Source: Alkalispirochaeta sp. (GTDB lineage Bacteria > Spirochaetota > Spirochaetia > DSM-27196 > Alkalispirochaetaceae). Taken from it: 64,000 nt of DNA. The stretch covers positions 352,001 to 416,000 of the forward strand of contig OZ271854.1 of assembly GCA_965601925.1 (NCBI GenBank). The letters are read 5' to 3'. Of the stretch, positions 1 to 6,721 are shown piece by piece (position 1 is the first letter of the stretch; each line of letters begins with the position of its first letter). The notes under the pieces are model-generated. The model worked only from the letters and a program-made list of their open reading frames with translations. It was not told the origin of the DNA and did not search any database. The position numbers and the translations under genes are program-made.

Positions 1-617
1 TTTATACTCGTTCGTCCTCATTGTACGTATCGCCGTCGGGAAGCGTATCATCGTCGTCTCATCGGGACTCGCCCTTTAATGACGATTCTATCTTCCGCGA
101 GCAGCGTGTGCGCGTGTTCGATCATTGCAATGAGTTGTAGATCAATCCGTTCCGCGATACTTCCGGGGTAACTGCGAACGATTCTTCGACCGGCACTCGC
201 GGCATGGCAAGAATGACGATCGTCGACAAATCCCGTATTGTCGGGTTACACCATAGCCGGCTCTCCTCACCCGGTTTGAGCGCCTTGCGAGATAAACAGA
301 TGATACTCGAACCGGAACCCTATGGATGGTTGCCCCGCAACCTCAATGAACAGCGGTTGGTCCGTGGGAATCTCGCGTAGATTCAAGAGCTGTTCCGCGG
401 TCTCTATCCGGACGATTCAACGTCTTAAGACGCGATTGGATATGCAACCGGCGAGGCGTACTGCCAAGACGGGACACGACAACGTTTATCGAAGTATTTT
501 TTACAACGAGGCCCCCAAATTGATAATCCGTTTATTGCCTATCATGAGATTTTCCGATTGGTACCCGGAGTTCGATCAACGTCGATACGGTATCGGTGGC
601 CTCTCTGTAAACAATAC

Positions 618-648
618 TTGACAACTGGGCGTTCTCGTATGATCATAC
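618..648 (+). promoter_or_regulatory. Putative sigma70-type promoter with overlapping 12-bp palindrome upstream of the peptide gene
   Basis: Perfect TTGACA at 618-623 in an AT-rich intergenic region. Perfect palindrome GTATGATCATAC at 637-648 covers the expected -10 position (GATCAT at 17-nt spacing, TATGAT at 14-nt spacing). Confidence 0.45.
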
Positions 649-722
649 CATCGATACGAAAAAGTTAAGGTATATACTAAAAATATTCGGTAATATCTAT
701 GTATCAATGCAGGAGGTTTCAG

Positions 723-869
723 ATGAAGTGGCAAGGTTACAATGAGAAAGCGGCCGAGCGGATGAATGGATTTGTCGTCAGGATTATAAACAGTCGATCG
801 ATCCTCGTCCTGATCGCATTGGCGGCGATGGTGGTGGTCGCTGCGGCAACCAACAAGTGGGGCGGTTAA
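723..869 (+). CDS. Small 48-aa hydrophobic peptide, putative signalling-peptide precursor (MKWQGYNEKAAERMNGFVVRIINSRSILVLIALAAMVVVAAATNKWGG)
   Basis: Hand-translated; below the ORF-track size cutoff. AGGAGG at 711-716, 6 nt before ATG 723; TAA at 867-869. One 16-residue hydrophobic stretch (I27-A42) followed by a short polar Trp-containing tail. Same strand as, and directly upstream of, the HD-GYP and DUF5317 genes. Alternative start at M14 (762). Confidence 0.8.
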   Translation: MKWQGYNEKAAERMNGFVVRIINSRSILVLIALAAMVVVAAATNKWGG

Positions 870-1049
870 TCATCCGATTCCGGATTCGTTAGTTCGTTCA
901 CGACCAATAATCAATCTCGTTGCGTGATATACGTATCCCGTGGGTGTTGTTCGGCGTGTTTTTGGTGTTCGCTTAGCCCATAGGCGCAGGACCGTCGACC
1001 AGCCACCTCATTCTGTTCGTCGCGGAGGAATGCGTGTTATTATCCCGCA

Positions 1050-2333
1050 ATGAGCAGATGGGCGCGCATCTATATCGCCGCCGTGTGTTTCGGCAGCCTT
1101 GTAATACTCACTACCGGATCGATCGATCTCGATCTGAGACAAAATCTCGTGCCGATCATGCTTCTTACGGCGGCTTCGTTCCTCACTCAGGTTTACGAGC
1201 TTGAGATACTGCCCAAGTATCTATTCTCAACTCATATTGCGATAGCGACGACGGCGGCGTTCATCGGTGGAATGCCTCTTGCGATATGGGTCGTGGTTTT
1301 GTCCACGCTACCGGCGGAGATCCTCTTACGGTGGGACCATATCAATAGCAGCTTCGGCCGGTTTACCGCACCGGTCTTGTTCAACACCGGACAGGTGATC
1401 TTGAGCGTCGCCGCTGCAGCTACCGTTTTCGATGCGATGATCGATCTCATCCCGGCCGTAAATCATTCCTATTATGCGATGATTGCGTCCTTTCTGGCTT
1501 ACTTCTTCGCCAACAACTTCCTGGTTGCCGGTGTCATCGCATTGACCTCAGACGAACGATTTTTCAAGATCCTTCATTCCGGATTCAAGAATCTTTATTT
1601 GCAATTCCTCAACCTGGGAGTCTTGTCAATCCTTATGACTACCCTCTACAAGGTCTCTCCGGTAAACCTCGCGTTGGCCCTTGCTCCCCTCGCACTCGTA
1701 CACCACTCGACCCGCAACTACCTTCGGCTACGCCGTGAATCGCACCAAGCGTTCAAACGGATCACCGAGCTGTTGGCCGAACGGGATGAGTACACCGGTG
1801 CGCATTCCGACGAGGTGGAGGAGTTGGCGGTCAAGCTCGCGGGGGCGGCAGGGCTCACCGACGACGCGATCGAGGCTGTGCGAGCCGGCGCCGCCATTCA
1901 CGATATCGGTAAGATCGCGATACCCGACGCAATACTGAAAAAACAGGGTCCCCTCGATACTGAGGAGTTTGAGACGATGAAGCGACACACGATCATCGGC
2001 GCCGAAATCATCAAGGATCTCGATATCTACCGGAGCGTCGTGCCGATCGTTCGGCACGAACACGAACACTGGGACGGATCGGGCTATCCGGACGGGTTGG
2101 TTCGGGAGGCTATTCCGATCGGGGCGCGCATCGTCGCGGTTGCCGATGTGTACAGCGCGCTAAGGACCGAGCGAGCGTACCGACCTCCGCAAGGCAAACC
2201 GTTGAAGTACACACACAAAGAGGCGTGTCGCATACTGTCTGAGATGGCCGGAACGGTATTGGATCCACACTTCGTCGAGGTATTCCTTCGCGTCGTCGGT
2301 AACATGGTTCACGAAGAGACGGCGGGGGACTGA
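1050..2333 (+). CDS. Membrane-sensor (MASE9-like, about 7 TM) HD-GYP cyclic-dinucleotide phosphodiesterase
   Basis: N-terminal ~220 aa are multiple hydrophobic helices with FNxxQ and YFxxN motifs. C-terminal HD-GYP domain has RDEYTGAHS, HDIGK, H313, EHEHWDGSGYPDGL, ARIVAVADVY and RAYR. TG-t-TATTAT at 1035-1043 lies 6 nt before the ATG (leaderless-type start). Confidence 0.9.
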   Translation: MSRWARIYIAAVCFGSLVILTTGSIDLDLRQNLVPIMLLTAASFLTQVYELEILPKYLFSTHIAIATTAAFIGGMPLAIWVVVLSTLPAEILLRWDHINSSFGRFTAPVLFNTGQVILSVAAAATVFDAMIDLIPAVNHSYYAMIASFLAYFFANNFLVAGVIALTSDERFFKILHSGFKNLYLQFLNLGVLSILMTTLYKVSPVNLALALAPLALVHHSTRNYLRLRRESHQAFKRITELLAERDEYTGAHSDEVEELAVKLAGAAGLTDDAIEAVRAGAAIHDIGKIAIPDAILKKQGPLDTEEFETMKRHTIIGAEIIKDLDIYRSVVPIVRHEHEHWDGSGYPDGLVREAIPIGARIVAVADVYSALRTERAYRPPQGKPLKYTHKEACRILSEMAGTVLDPHFVEVFLRVVGNMVHEETAGD

Positions 2334-2335
2334 TA

Positions 2336-2914
2336 GTGATCGCATTGTGGGGAATTGTTTTCGGGCTGTTGATCGGATTCATTCGCGGGGGAAAACTCAA
2401 TAATCTCGGAGCTACTCGGTTACGGGGACTCTCTATCGTCTTCGTGGCCCTTGCCGTTCAGCTCCTCATCTTCCCTACGCCGTGGTGGCCCGAACCACCG
2501 GTGTCGCGGGCGACGGGTGCATTGCACCTTGGTTCCTACGCTCTGATGGTGACGTTCCTCATATTGAACCGTCGGTATACTCCCTTCTGGGGTGTTGCCC
2601 TCGGTATGGCGATGAATCTTACCGTGATAGCGGTAAACGGCGGTTACATGCCCGCGGATTTAGACGCTTTGAGAGCCACCGGACAGTTGGGGACGGTTCG
2701 CAAGATTCTGGCGTCCGTCGATCAGACCTACGGTAACGTGGTCGCGATGAGCGAAGCGACGCGTTTGAATTTTCTCGGCGATTGGTTGGTGGTTCCCCCC
2801 TGGGTGCCATTTGCCGCGAGCTTCAGCCTGGGAGACGCAGTGTTGATGGTTAGCGCTGCTTGGCTCGTCCAAGCACTTATGTCTGATCGAGAACGACGGA
2901 ACGACGACGGTTGA
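2336..2914 (+). CDS. DUF5317-family membrane protein; candidate LspA-like aspartic peptidase
   Basis: Family-typical motifs RGGxLxxL, N..NGGYMP, LxFLGDW and FSLGD; several TM helices. GTG start 2 nt after the HD-GYP stop, implying co-translation. Confidence 0.85.
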   Translation: MIALWGIVFGLLIGFIRGGKLNNLGATRLRGLSIVFVALAVQLLIFPTPWWPEPPVSRATGALHLGSYALMVTFLILNRRYTPFWGVALGMAMNLTVIAVNGGYMPADLDALRATGQLGTVRKILASVDQTYGNVVAMSEATRLNFLGDWLVVPPWVPFAASFSLGDAVLMVSAAWLVQALMSDRERRNDDG

Positions 2915-3254
2915 TGATGGGCCTTGTCCGCACGCATCAATAGATAATCACGTCACGGCGATTGACTCTTCCGTAGCGGGGTCCCACAGCGTTCGTATCG
3001 AGTTCCGTTTTCTCGATGCTCGGGCAGCGGCGCCGCAGCGTATCCAGGTTCACTACCGAGAGTACCAGGCCCTGGCGGTCTCCGACGTGTCTCGCCGCTT
3101 CGCCATAATCCGCGACGGTGAATAGCGCGTCTTCCCCCGTCCAAAGACGCCCTCGATCGGGTTTCGCGCATGCTGATCGTTACGAGCCTGATAGCGTTCG
3201 GCCCGCGTCGGATAACTTCTTCGGCCCGCCCCCAAAGGCGGTCCGCCAAGCCGT

Positions 3255-3549
3255 GTGCCGCGTGTTGTGCAATACCGTGCCGTCACGGTCGGTGATACGC
3301 CGCGACGTATTTGGAAACACATGCGGGGAAAGGATCGCGAAAGCCACGTCTACACCGTCGACTACCTGGATCAATCGACGAATGCGCGCCGAAGCGACTC
3401 GCGAGCAGCGAGCCCAACTTCGCGGGATCAACGTGGAGCTGACGACGATCAAGGACAACCTCGTGCGAGCCCGTAAAAAGGCGCATCAGTACGTCGCCAA
3501 GTCCGAGGAGATCGCACAACTCAAGAAACTGGGCATCACCGGGACGTAG
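3255..3549 (+). pseudogene. Probable frameshifted or 5'-truncated remnant of an unknown gene
   Basis: Protein-like text (WKHMRGKDRESHVYTVDYLDQS) in one frame continues in another frame as a helical C-terminus (AEATREQRAQLRGINVELTTIKDNLVRARKKAHQYVAKSEEIAQLKKLG) with host-like GC-ending codons. No convincing start. Confidence 0.3.
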
Positions 3550-3563
3550 CGGGCACGGCTCCC

Positions 3564-4382
3564 TTAGTGCGTCGCCAAGTCGATCCGTCGTCGCTCGGCA
3601 AGGCGATATGTCGTGAACACCTCGGCAAAGTGTCGCCGCAGAAGACGATCCATCGTTCCGTCCGCCGCGACCGCATGCAAGCCCCGTTCTATGGCTTGAA
3701 TGACGCAGGGCGAAACCTGGGGAGAAAAGTAGAACCGGAAATCGCGCGCGTATACCAAAAGCAGATTCGGCTCCACCTCGAGGTGGGGATAGTGCGGTGC
3801 CTCGGAAATCACCTCGGCGATGCCGCGCGGAAAATAGTCGATTCCGCGACCGCGATTGGCAACCATACCGAAGATATTGCGCGAGTCGGCCACCTCTACC
3901 ACGGAGAGACCGTTGACGTTCCATACCTGGGCGTCGTACCAGCCTTCACCTACGCCGGCCACAGCGTCGAGCGCTACGAGGTCGGCCACGGAACGGACGT
4001 CGCGATACCGCGCCGACTCGCCGCGCGGTATCAAAAACACGCGATGTCCGATCAAATTGTTGGTGACCGGCGCGTTAGCGACGCGATACGTACCGTTTCG
4101 CTCGACCGTCTCGACGTACCAATCGACGTCGATCAGATGGCCGGCTTCGAGTGCCGCCTGGCGCCGTAGCTGCGGAATATCGGGGATCGATTCGATCTCC
4201 AGACGAAGTCCCGCACGATCGGCCGCCGCGATGAGCAGTTCGTGATAATACCGATGGCCTTGATCCTCCGCACTCGGTACGCGCAGGGAGATCTGCGACT
4301 GAGCGTCCGTAACGGTGGCGAACAACATTAGTATAGCCCCCAATAGCGTGAGCCGATTGGGGACGACTCGAGATGCATGCAT
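3564..4382 (-). CDS. Periplasmic solute-binding-like protein (SBP family 3 / PBP2 fold), likely a sensory partner
   Basis: Signal peptide after ATG 4382 (GGGGGA RBS). Motifs GxRVFLI, GxGWYDAQVW, MVAxxGRGIDYFPRG and YFS are typical of orphan PBP2 proteins encoded beside GGDEF/EAL genes. Confidence 0.75.
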   Translation of the reverse strand: MHASRVVPNRLTLLGAILMLFATVTDAQSQISLRVPSAEDQGHRYYHELLIAAADRAGLRLEIESIPDIPQLRRQAALEAGHLIDVDWYVETVERNGTYRVANAPVTNNLIGHRVFLIPRGESARYRDVRSVADLVALDAVAGVGEGWYDAQVWNVNGLSVVEVADSRNIFGMVANRGRGIDYFPRGIAEVISEAPHYPHLEVEPNLLLVYARDFRFYFSPQVSPCVIQAIERGLHAVAADGTMDRLLRRHFAEVFTTYRLAERRRIDLATH

Positions 4383-4509
4383 AAAGACGAATCCCCCATG
4401 AGAAGTGGTGACACTATCCTGTGTCGGATGGGCACGGGCCCGTAGTGTGCTCGCGCGCCGTTCGGACCGGATTGACGCCGCCGCACGGAATGGTACCACC
4501 GGCGGGACG

Positions 4510-6486
4510 TCATGGGCAGCCCACCGTCTGGTCGCGCGCCAACGCATCCAAGCAACGATCGAGCGTGTCGGGGCGATGGAGGTGATAGCCCTGGCCGAGC
4601 TCAAAACCGGCCTCCAGAACGAGCTGAACGTGTTCGCGCGATTCGATTCCCTCGGCGAGGGCGGGTATACGCAACGCGCGCGCCAAGCCGGCGATCGACT
4701 TCAACACATGCTTGGACGCCCAGTTGTCGGCGGCGCCGGACACGAAGTGGCGGTCGATTTTGATCATACCGAAGCGATAATCATTGAGCCTCCGGAGCGT
4801 CGAAGAGCCGGCCCCGAAGTCGTCTATAACGATAAGAAAGCCGAGTTCCTGTAACGCCCGTACGGCGGCGACGTAGGCGGTGGAGTCGTTCCCGACCGAT
4901 GTCTCGGTCAGTTCGAACCGCAAGCGCCGCGGTAACTCGGGTCGCTCCGCGATAAGCGCACGAATGTCGTCGACGAGACGCTCGCTCAACAACTGGACGG
5001 GACTGAGATTGACGTTGACGAAGACACCGCCGTCGGTTCGTGCCGCGTCGATTCGCGTGATCGCATCCGCCGCCTGCCGTACCGCCCACCACCCGAGGTT
5101 TAGGATCTCACCGTTCTCCTCAGCAATGGGGATAAACACCGACGGCGGAATCATTCCCAACTCGGGGTGGGACCAGCGCACCAACAATTCATATCCCACG
5201 ACGCGCCTGACGCGCAGATCGACGATCGCTTGATAGTGCGCCGACAGCTGGCTTCGATAATCCGTTCCGGACATCGCCTGCTCCAGCGCGGTCCGCAGGG
5301 AGTGCTCGTGCCGCGCGGCGTCGTCATACTCCGCTACGGCCGAGCCGTGGGGCATCCGTACGGTGGCGCGAAGCCCGGCGTCGGCCCGTTTGCGCGCCTC
5401 GTTAACCTCCATGTCGATCGGAAACGAGGCGACGGCGGCGCGAACCCGAATACGAAACGCGCCGGTACGAAGATGGATCGGTCGCTCCATCACTTCGATA
5501 AGTCGCGCCGCTCGGGCCCGCGCAGCCGTGAGACCATCCAACTGGGCGACGGCGAAGAACTTAAAACCGTATCCGCGTACCAAAACGGCGCACGAGGAGC
5601 CGAGATTGGTGCGCGCGCGGGCCGCGAGCACACGCAACAACTCGTCGATCAAGTGTGTGTCGAGGAGCGAAACGAGTTCCGCCACGTGTTCGACCGACAG
5701 GGCGATCATGAATCTCGAGTGCCGGGGATGAGCCTTGCTCTCCGCCGCCGGTACCGGAACCTCCTCGTTCAGCGCTCGCAACAGCGGCAATCCGGTCGCA
5801 TAGTCATAGTATGCTTGATACCGCAGTCGACTCTGATCGAGCTGGAGGGAGCGCAACTCGCGCATGAGCCGTACACGATTGCCGCGACGATCAACCCCGT
5901 TCATGATCTCCATGAGTACCGCCAGCAACCCGACGATCAGAACCAACTGGCCGACGTAGAGCAATACGCTACCGACGATCGCTCGACCTACCGCGTCTTC
6001 AATGGAGGAACGATTCAACAGCACCGTGGCGTGTCCTATCGTCCGGTCCTGCCAATAGATCGGGGCGCGATACACGAACTGAGCCAGCCGCCGATCGGCT
6101 ATCCAACTCGGGCGAGCGATCGGGTTGCCGCCGGACGAAAAGAATATCCGCACCCCCTCGGAGTCGTAGGTCGCGGTAATGCGGCCGTTTTCGGACACCA
6201 CGGCACGCTCGATCTCACGGAGATTCTCCATGGCCGCCACCGCCCGCCGCATACCCTCATCGGACAGCGTCCAGAGAGGCTCGGCGACCGCAGCGGCCAG
6301 TGCACGCGCGAGCCGATCTCCGGCTGCGTGCAACTCCGCCCGCTGCCGCCGAACGGAGATGATGCCGAACAACACGATCGCGACCAATGCCCCCAACGCT
6401 ACAACGATGACGTGCGGCCGCATCGTCGACAACGCCGAGGTACGCGCCTCAGTCGAAACGTCTATTCGCTTCATCATCGGCTTCAT
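4510..6486 (-). CDS. Two-TM membrane protein with degenerate GGDEF and EAL phosphodiesterase domains
   Basis: EAL motifs HYQ..GYELLVRW, VNVNLS, FELTET, IDDFGAGSS, IKID, AEGIE and GQGY. The GGDEF position reads RGYGFKF. Start uncertain (6486 or 6423). Confidence 0.85.
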   Translation of the reverse strand: MKPMMKRIDVSTEARTSALSTMRPHVIVVALGALVAIVLFGIISVRRQRAELHAAGDRLARALAAAVAEPLWTLSDEGMRRAVAAMENLREIERAVVSENGRITATYDSEGVRIFFSSGGNPIARPSWIADRRLAQFVYRAPIYWQDRTIGHATVLLNRSSIEDAVGRAIVGSVLLYVGQLVLIVGLLAVLMEIMNGVDRRGNRVRLMRELRSLQLDQSRLRYQAYYDYATGLPLLRALNEEVPVPAAESKAHPRHSRFMIALSVEHVAELVSLLDTHLIDELLRVLAARARTNLGSSCAVLVRGYGFKFFAVAQLDGLTAARARAARLIEVMERPIHLRTGAFRIRVRAAVASFPIDMEVNEARKRADAGLRATVRMPHGSAVAEYDDAARHEHSLRTALEQAMSGTDYRSQLSAHYQAIVDLRVRRVVGYELLVRWSHPELGMIPPSVFIPIAEENGEILNLGWWAVRQAADAITRIDAARTDGGVFVNVNLSPVQLLSERLVDDIRALIAERPELPRRLRFELTETSVGNDSTAYVAAVRALQELGFLIVIDDFGAGSSTLRRLNDYRFGMIKIDRHFVSGAADNWASKHVLKSIAGLARALRIPALAEGIESREHVQLVLEAGFELGQGYHLHRPDTLDRCLDALARDQTVGCP

Positions 6487-6721
6487 CGGTGTACCGTAAG
6501 TCGATAGACAACGTCGGCGGCGTCCGACAGTCACTACACCGATCGGCGTGTGATATCAAGCTCACCGGCGTAGTCGGTAGATTTGCTCTTATTTCGATTA
6601 TCGTTTCCCTCGTCATCGCCGCCGTATCCGTGACGATTCGAAGCGCGGCGACATCTGAGAGCGCCCGCTCACGATCGTCTACCGCCCCGCTGCGTAACGA
6701 GGATGTACCGTTGTGTCGCAA
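6449..6721 (-). CDS. Possible small protein upstream of the EAL gene
   Basis: TTG start preceded by GGAGGGG; protein-like segment IIEIRANLPTTPVSLIS. Overlaps the candidate upstream starts of the EAL gene. Confidence 0.25.
   Translation of the reverse strand: MRHNGTSSLRSGAVDDRERALSDVAALRIVTDTAAMTRETIIEIRANLPTTPVSLISHADRCSDCRTPPTLSIDLRYTDEADDEANRRFD

Follow-up and report, generated by a model that had tools for sequence, protein, structure and literature searches.

A membrane micro-protein linked to MASE9 sensors and DUF5317 in Alkalispirochaeta and across phyla

In this study, we analyzed a stretch of 64,000 nucleotides (nt) from Alkalispirochaeta sp. (assembly GCA_965601925.1, contig OZ271854.1, forward-strand positions 352,001 to 416,000), referred to below as the window. 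Near its start, the window carries a gene for a 48-amino-acid (aa) micro-protein, followed by genes for a membrane sensor fused to an HD-GYP domain and for a DUF5317 membrane protein. An earlier note on this DNA had described the three genes as a candidate peptide signalling cassette, in which DUF5317 would cut the micro-protein and the released Trp-containing peptide would switch the phosphodiesterase activity of the sensor. Comparison of loci showed the trio to be linked across phyla, and we regard it as close to certain that the micro-protein, the MASE9 sensor and DUF5317 form a real module. The cassette itself is thereby confirmed as real and widespread, whereas its pheromone mechanism is unproven and, in our estimate, less likely than a membrane-retained co-sensor. 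Our preferred, still tentative reading is that the micro-protein stays in the membrane as co-sensor or ligand of MASE9, with DUF5317 as an accessory at the outer face. The parts of the module in the window are as follows:

711 to 716, plus strand: Shine-Dalgarno sequence AGGAGG, 6 nt ahead of the micro-protein ATG
723 to 869, plus strand: micro-protein gene, 48 aa, stop included, encoding MKWQGYNEKAAERMNGFVVRIINSRSILVLIALAAMVVVAAATNKWGG
1050 to 2333, plus strand: whole HD-GYP sensor gene, 427 aa, with its TGA at 2331-2333
1050 to 1739, plus strand: polytopic membrane domain at the N terminus of the sensor (aa 1-230), assigned to a divergent MASE9 from a sub-threshold PF20972 match, homologues and a structure model
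1764 to 2270, plus strand: HD-GYP phosphodiesterase domain (aa 239-407; HD_5, 114.9 bits) with motifs HDIGK and HWDGSGYP
2336 to 2914, plus strand: DUF5317 gene, 192 aa (PF17248, 94.4 bits), with a GTG start 2 nt past the HD-GYP TGA

The earlier note had already recognized the overlooked open reading frame (ORF) at 723-869 behind its AGGAGG ribosome-binding site, and a search through 40 other genomes of the host's order, translated in six frames, bore it out. Full-length 48-aa matches were found in nine of them (E 2e-8 to 2e-17), and all nine small ORFs have exactly 48 codons and lie directly upstream of the HD-GYP orthologue. A GGAGG- or GGGGG-type site stands at a constant distance ahead of 10/10 orthologues. 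Residues M1, K2, W3, G5, Y6, R25, K45 and W46 are invariant in these 10 sequences, and M1-K2-W3 together with K45-W46 in 31/31 aligned homologues. Among 14 orthologues (91 pairs), the median proportions of synonymous and non-synonymous differences were 0.68 and 0.31, and the median ratio of non-synonymous to synonymous rates (dN/dS) was 0.20 in the 63/91 pairs with finite, unsaturated dS. Judged by these sequence comparisons, the gene was shown to be real and under purifying selection. Being short and hydrophobic, placed upstream of a sensor gene and, like some type I toxins, present in tandem at a number of loci, the frame could in principle be a regulatory leader or upstream ORF, encode a peptide resembling type I toxins or have arisen by chance. 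We consider it highly improbable that the small ORF encodes no functional protein: its length and its residues are conserved within the order as well as between phyla, the dN/dS is 0.20, the Shine-Dalgarno sequence is strong in all 10 orthologues, the small gene is separated from the sensor gene by its own terminator in 7/8 relatives' loci, and its synteny with MASE9 is fixed, unlike that of mobile toxin loci.

The micro-protein is built from a basic N-terminal part (residues 1-25), a single hydrophobic stretch (about residues 26-43) and a tail of the form xKWGG, which reads NKWGG in the window. In spirochaetes, it comprises 48 codons with a conserved cytoplasmic part MKWxGY..KAAxR. The hydrophobic helix noticed earlier is present, but it measures 18-19 residues, a membrane-spanning length, and not 16; K-W-x-G indeed occurs at both ends of the protein, as MKWQG and NKWGG. 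Lys and Arg residues number a median of six before the helix and one after it. Because of this excess the KW tail should end at the outer face, on the same side as the DUF5317 insert described below, and a topology with the N terminus inside and the C terminus outside is predicted. Variability peaks at the residue before K45 (entropy 3.42). Regarding features of a signal peptide, a basic n-region and a small-residue patch are present, the h-region has about 18-19 residues, and 2-5 residues follow the patch, which precedes Pro in GAP variants. No Pfam family matched the small protein at E <= 0.01, and a word-index protein search with the 48-aa protein returned the window's own copy as sole match. 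When 1.84 billion representative proteins were searched with a profile built from 31 small proteins, 69 matched at E <= 0.001. Of these, 67 are unnamed stand-alone representative clusters of 31-80 aa and two are unrelated repeat proteins (P0091, 1845 aa; P0155, 679 aa); none of the 69 is a Rosetta-stone fusion of the micro-protein to MASE9 or DUF5317.

If the cassette is general, DUF5317 loci should carry ORFs of fewer than 60 aa with a helix and a (K/R)W end upstream of MASE-type sensors, as the earlier note had reasoned, and this is what was found. Using an alignment of 32 DUF5317 proteins, we fetched 80 metagenome-contig loci whose DUF5317 proteins are 30-48% identical to that of the window; Bipolaricaulota and Roseiflexaceae are among the named relatives. 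In 47/80 loci, the end of an HD-GYP gene lies just ahead of DUF5317, and in two more such a gene lies downstream, while 22 of the remaining 31 have less than 1.5 kb of upstream sequence. A hidden Markov model (HMM) of the sensor's N-terminal domain matched in 49/80 loci, and 39 loci were testable, having the sensor start and at least 120 nt upstream of it on the contig. In 38 of these 39, the 1.3 kb upstream contain one or more small ORFs in the orientation of the sensor gene. The pattern consists of a membrane helix, a small-residue patch (GAG, SGA, AAS, GAP), a variable residue, (K/R)W, 0-7 further residues and the stop. Counted among the 38 is L098, with a truncated homologue that ends in GAPVR and has no KW; the sole miss, L118, offers just 218 nt of room. 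The identical pattern was absent from all 4164 control frames (0/2468 on the minus strand, 0/1696 elsewhere on the plus strand), and a stricter motif gave 63 matches in 7303 frames, 63/63 of them on the DUF5317 strand.

The pairing extends beyond HD-GYP proteins. In L105 and L106 the small ORF precedes a MASE9-GAF-histidine kinase-receiver protein, and in L099 a small ORF of 27 aa lies between DUF5317 and a MASE9-SpoIIE phosphatase. Across these loci, the small ORF was shown to track MASE9 and not the output domain, and to lie always just 5' of the MASE9 gene. The gene order is DUF5317, small ORF, MASE9 in L094, L099 and L105. The tail varies in its final residues: W is the last residue, or is followed by one residue, in some loci (L105, L115), and GAP-x-KW tails, with Pro right after the small patch, occur in L114, L099 and L089. 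One copy of the small ORF is present in 22 loci, two in 11, three in four and four in one, so that tandem arrays are found in 16/39 loci.

These arrays allowed us to compare paralogous copies with one another. The last 24 codons, covering helix and tail, differ by 40 non-synonymous and 77 synonymous changes, the N-terminal part by 140 and 54, respectively, in sums over pairs within arrays that are not mutually independent. The two copies in L114 show 0 non-synonymous and 6 synonymous differences in helix and tail. Since helix and tail are more constrained between paralogues than the N-terminal part, they appear to be the functional part and to be specifically read, which would fit an in-membrane partner of MASE9 best and processing less well. 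The view that the protein is little more than a signal peptide, put forward in the earlier note, sits poorly with this strong purifying selection on the helix, which would be unexpected of a signal sequence.

Several DUF5317 loci differ in their gene content. In a distant clade (L085, L087, L092, L094; L097, L101), two different small ORFs with ends of the ...ASGAGxKW type precede the sensor. DUF5317 is followed on its 3' side by an MFS_3 'transmembrane secretion effector' transporter in L085, L087, L092 and L094 and by a PMT-type glycosyltransferase in two loci, L097 and L101; the window has no fusion of DUF5317 with an MFS protein. DUF5317 occurs without a MASE9 gene or small ORF in L074, L075 and L076, where the neighbours are an Asp/Asn/Lys-type tRNA synthetase gene and, in L074, a fragment of a group II intron reverse transcriptase/maturase. 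The gene immediately 5' of DUF5317 encodes a GAF-GGDEF diguanylate cyclase in L086, and in L128 a GAF protein is encoded downstream of DUF5317; DUF5317 therefore also accompanies cyclic di-GMP (c-di-GMP) or GAF proteins without MASE9.

Within the spirochaetes, the module is patchy. The micro-protein gene and the DUF5317 gene are each present as a single copy in the 5.05-Mb host genome. DUF5317 lies 3' of the HD-GYP gene in seven spirochaete loci, and the loci of G009, G035 and G021 are cut by the contig end. Genome G001, of the same genus and 91% complete, carries an intact micro-protein and a full HD-GYP gene inside a 430-kb contig, and an HMM search found no DUF5317 in it, at the locus or genome-wide, at E <= 1. 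Among other genomes of the genus, the small ORF was found in 5/16 and DUF5317 in 3/16. In a sample of the phylum, DUF5317 was found in 2/301 genomes and MASE9 above its cut-off in 0/301, and no further loci were obtained. This patchy presence suggests gain and loss or lateral transfer. Among 14 control genomes, the DUF5317 and MASE9 profiles match the same two, those of Thermus thermophilus and Thermotoga maritima.

The sensor, read by the earlier note as a membrane domain of about seven transmembrane segments fused to HD-GYP, is confirmed in both parts. HD_5 (PF13487) matches far above its cut-off of 27.2 bits, and PF01966 reaches 80.2 bits (cut-off 22). The HD and GYP motifs (HDIGK, HEHWDGSGYP) and the metal ligands are intact in the window protein, and H284, D285, K288, H313, H338, E339, G345, Y346, P347 and D366 are invariant in 20 sequences. 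The protein was aligned at E 3.9e-30 to PDB entry 4mcw, which we take to be an active c-di-GMP phosphodiesterase. With its catalytic residues shown to be intact, it is a predicted c-di-GMP phosphodiesterase. The AlphaFold2 model of the sensor has about seven N-terminal helices (3-22, 29-53, 62-93, 102-133, 139-167, 171-179, 183-202). To MASE9 (PF20972) the window sensor matches at 15.8 bits (E 0.014; model positions 62-191 of 203), under the cut-off of 24.3. Three proteins that carry precomputed PF20972 (P0077, P0085, P0086) are 45-54% identical to it over residues 1-230, the sensor of the distant locus L085 has MASE9 at 48.7 bits, and an HMM of the window's N-terminal domain recovers MASE9 proteins at E 1e-23 to 1e-76. 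By these comparisons, the membrane domain is a divergent MASE9. MASE9 was defined from T. maritima TM1467, with eight predicted membrane segments, and belongs to the many membrane sensors of c-di-GMP enzymes that have no known signal (bioRxiv 10.1101/2021.11.05.467447).

The third gene, which as noted earlier begins immediately after the HD-GYP stop, matches PF17248 over model positions 3-150 of 151, well above the cut-off of 25 bits. Its AlphaFold2 model (predicted local distance difference test score 93) shows five long helices and a 62-residue insert (101-164). The density of Lys and Arg is 0.22-0.24 in loops 1 and 3 and 0.14 at the C-terminal end, compared with 0.03-0.05 for loop 2 and the insert, from which the positive-inside rule predicts an outward-facing insert. 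Residues N94, N101, G103, M105, P106, D149, P154, S164, G166 and D167 are invariant in the 32-protein alignment, most of them in or beside the insert, and D149 and D167 stand in hGD contexts at the predicted outer face. Pfam at E <= 0.01 assigned the 192-aa protein to DUF5317 alone and to no peptidase family. Foldseek against the PDB gave no match at E <= 0.001, a wide structure search had a designed helical barrel as its best hit (Z 6.2), a PDB profile search returned nothing relevant, and the ESM Atlas held no usable match after PF17248 was excluded. An LspA-like aspartic peptidase had been suspected from the NGGxMP, LGD and SxGD motifs, and this idea was dropped: comparison by hhalign with nine LspA sequences of the same order gave a homology probability of 7% over 28 columns. 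The structure 6ryp_A, which we take to be LspA, ranked 36th (Z 5.2, root-mean-square deviation 3.7, 95 aligned residues), inside the noise band of the tool. Any chemistry of DUF5317 would be putative.

The surroundings of the three genes point to separate transcription of the small gene, and two further feature rows bear on this:

618 to 678, plus strand: two overlapping sigma-70-like promoter matches ahead of the micro-protein gene, TTGACA-17-GATCAT (618-646) and TCGATA-16-TATACT (651-678), seen as consensus matches only
1035 to 1043, plus strand: extended -10-like element TGTTATTAT, with 6 nt between its end and the ATG of the HD-GYP gene

A consensus scan counted five promoter-like sites, compared with a mean of 2.0 in shuffles. 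Intrinsic terminators, consisting of a GC-rich hairpin and a U-run, separate the small gene from the sensor gene in 7/8 relatives' loci (L028, L029, L030, L031, L034, L035, L036; L033 is without a clear one), which suggests that the small gene is transcribed as a unit of its own. In the window, the spacer at 870-1049 contains just a weak 5-bp hairpin and no convincing terminator. The sequence TGnTAnnnT stands 6-7 nt before the HD-GYP start codon in 9/9 loci compared (window 1035-1052; L028-L036), and this start has no Shine-Dalgarno sequence, which together suggest a leaderless sensor mRNA. The sensor gene seems to have its own promoter, and a leaderless mRNA may serve both this gene and that for DUF5317. 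A search for RNA families and riboswitches at window positions 300-3300 returned nothing at E <= 1 except a chance-level small RNA match at 3213-3247. In 20 related loci no RNA family reached its gathering score, and no c-di-GMP riboswitch was found in the window or in those loci.

In the reading we favour, the micro-protein would be a single-pass protein kept in the membrane, with its N terminus in the cytoplasm and its C terminus at the outer face of the cytoplasmic membrane. It would act there as the in-membrane partner of MASE9, whether co-sensor or ligand, and set the activity of the fused HD-GYP c-di-GMP phosphodiesterase. Contact would be made through the specific sequence of the helix, the patch of small residues and, at the boundary of membrane and water, the invariant (K/R)W. 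DUF5317 would be an accessory and not an obligatory part, with its invariant Asn and Asp residues at the outer boundary acting on or with the tail by binding, presenting or modifying it. Topology, physical binding and direction of regulation are predictions of this proposal. The intact micro-protein in G001, which has no DUF5317, counts in favour of a retained protein. Galperin and Chou have proposed that the ligand of MASE9 binds within the membrane (bioRxiv 10.1101/2021.11.05.467447), and we count this on the same side.

Co-folding of the three chains (HD-GYP, DUF5317 and micro-protein) gave scores of 0.65, 0.64 and 0.62, compared with 0.00 and 0.00 when unrelated proteins took the place of the micro-protein; replacement of the HD-GYP chain gave 0.66. 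The score is therefore not specific to the HD-GYP chain, and we take the result as no evidence either way. A number of observations weigh against a retained co-sensor. The binding of the micro-protein to MASE9 is a prediction, and the sensor of the window itself falls below the Pfam cut-off for MASE9. Near-identical tandem copies, two to four in 16/39 loci, would be unusual for a 1:1 regulatory subunit and better fit a product that is consumed or highly abundant. The residue before K45 is the most variable one, as might be expected if it set the specificity of a released peptide, and the MFS_3 exporter after DUF5317 in one clade (L085, L087, L092, L094) hints at export. Finally, in L088, L089, L100, L107, L117 and L128 small ORFs directly adjoin DUF5317 without an intervening MASE9 gene, and DUF5317 may accordingly be their primary partner.

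This last adjacency is also what speaks for a different arrangement, in which micro-protein and DUF5317 would together form a small membrane complex, be it a channel, a transporter subunit or a probe of the envelope state, whose state is read by MASE9. The gene order DUF5317, small ORF, MASE9 in three loci (L094, L099, L105) agrees with such a complex, as do the invariant polar residues of DUF5317, which face the side where the KW tail ends. However, G001 retains the other two genes without DUF5317, and both a MASE9 gene and a small ORF of the KW type are missing from at least six loci with at least 1.5 kb of upstream sequence (L113, L116, L125, L127, L129, and L089 with a variant tail only), although most of the contigs in question are short and a MASE9 gene could lie past the contig end. 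We rate a complex of this kind as rather unlikely.

Closest to the earlier note is the possibility that the micro-protein is a precursor, which DUF5317 or signal peptidase cuts after the small patch so that a Trp peptide of 3-7 residues switches the MASE9 phosphodiesterase from outside. The tandem arrays of two to four copies would suit a precursor, as would the terminator after the small gene in 7/8 relatives' loci, which permits a high ratio of precursor to receptor. Variable positions on either side of the invariant KW, the two invariant Asp residues of DUF5317 (D149, D167) at the predicted outer face and the MFS_3 exporter 3' of DUF5317 in four loci point the same way, and the sizes and parts parallel those of agrD, agrB and agrC. 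Against this, DUF5317 matches no peptidase family or fold, and G001 has peptide and receptor without it; DUF5317-dependent cleavage and release, as proposed earlier, is left unsupported. The KW is invariant across phyla, unlike in known pheromones. In L105 and L115, where W is last or next to last, the product would have just 3-4 residues. The GAP variants of L114, L099 and L089 place Pro after the small patch, and Pro at that bond would block cleavage by signal peptidase I. The helix, moreover, is under stronger constraint than the rest of the micro-protein. On balance, we think a precursor of this sort unlikely. A more specific form, which appears quite unlikely to us, has a membrane-held pro-peptide and DUF5317 as a novel juxtamembrane peptidase that uses its two outer-face Asp residues to free an x-(K/R)-W-x tail peptide of 3-7 residues sensed by MASE9. 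If true, it would amount to a circuit from peptide pheromone to c-di-GMP, common to spirochaetes, Bipolaricaulota, Chloroflexota, Thermus, Thermotoga and actinomycetes.

The resemblance to Gram-positive peptide quorum sensing deserves a closer comparison. The agrBDCA locus of Staphylococcus combines genes for a peptide (about 46-48 aa), a polytopic membrane protein (about 190 aa) and a multi-helix membrane receptor, and the window module is alike in peptide size, in its polytopic protein of about 190 aa, in its multi-helix receptor and in their co-encoding. It differs in having no Pfam match to AgrB or AgrD at E <= 0.01, no Cys in the micro-protein for a thiolactone ring, and an HD-GYP instead of a histidine kinase as output. 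The conserved part here is the membrane helix with 2-4 residues. The parallel drawn in the earlier note is further weakened by the host, which is a spirochaete and not a Gram-positive bacterium, and by a (K/R)W that is invariant across phyla, unlike the strain-specific agr signals and other pheromones.

Small membrane proteins that modulate histidine kinases, namely MgrB and SafA with PhoQ and MzrA with EnvZ, are single-copy and are not known to be fixed in synteny with their sensor across phyla. The micro-protein shares with them a single pass, a length of less than 70 aa and a proposed contact with a membrane sensor in or beside the membrane. In contrast, it has no sequence relation to them, its proposed partner is MASE9, its gene is often repeated in tandem, and the module includes a third conserved membrane protein. 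With the MASE9-HD-GYP phosphodiesterases T. maritima TM1467 and Streptomyces venezuelae HdgA, the window sensor has in common a polytopic N-terminal domain fused to a catalytically complete HD-GYP domain. Here, however, the sensor is accompanied by the micro-protein and DUF5317, and PF20972 is carried by its homologues while the protein itself stays below the cut-off. No phenotype was obtained for HdgA, the one member studied, perhaps, as the authors of that work suggested, for want of the activating signal under their conditions (Al-Bassam et al. 2018, PMC6205966). Neither a small upstream gene nor DUF5317 is mentioned in the parts of the MASE9 preprint and of PMC6205966 that were covered. 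Our literature search found no paper that names DUF5317 or ties the small gene to MASE9.

The neighbourhood of the module in the window adds a few observations. On the opposite strand just downstream lie a 346-aa ORF without a Pfam match (3564-4604, minus strand) and a gene for a 674-aa membrane protein with an EAL domain (4510-6534, minus strand; 194.8 bits). A second c-di-GMP phosphodiesterase therefore adjoins the module. Upstream of the micro-protein gene, positions 1-700 hold no ORF longer than 99 aa on either strand, with no family search made there, and this stretch may be long non-coding or decayed.

MASE9 is a sensor domain without a known signal, and the micro-protein together with DUF5317 is a first concrete, testable candidate for its input. 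The module likewise gives DUF5317 a first functional context. Beyond this, it adds a widespread and mostly unannotated family to the small membrane proteins that are overlooked by gene callers.

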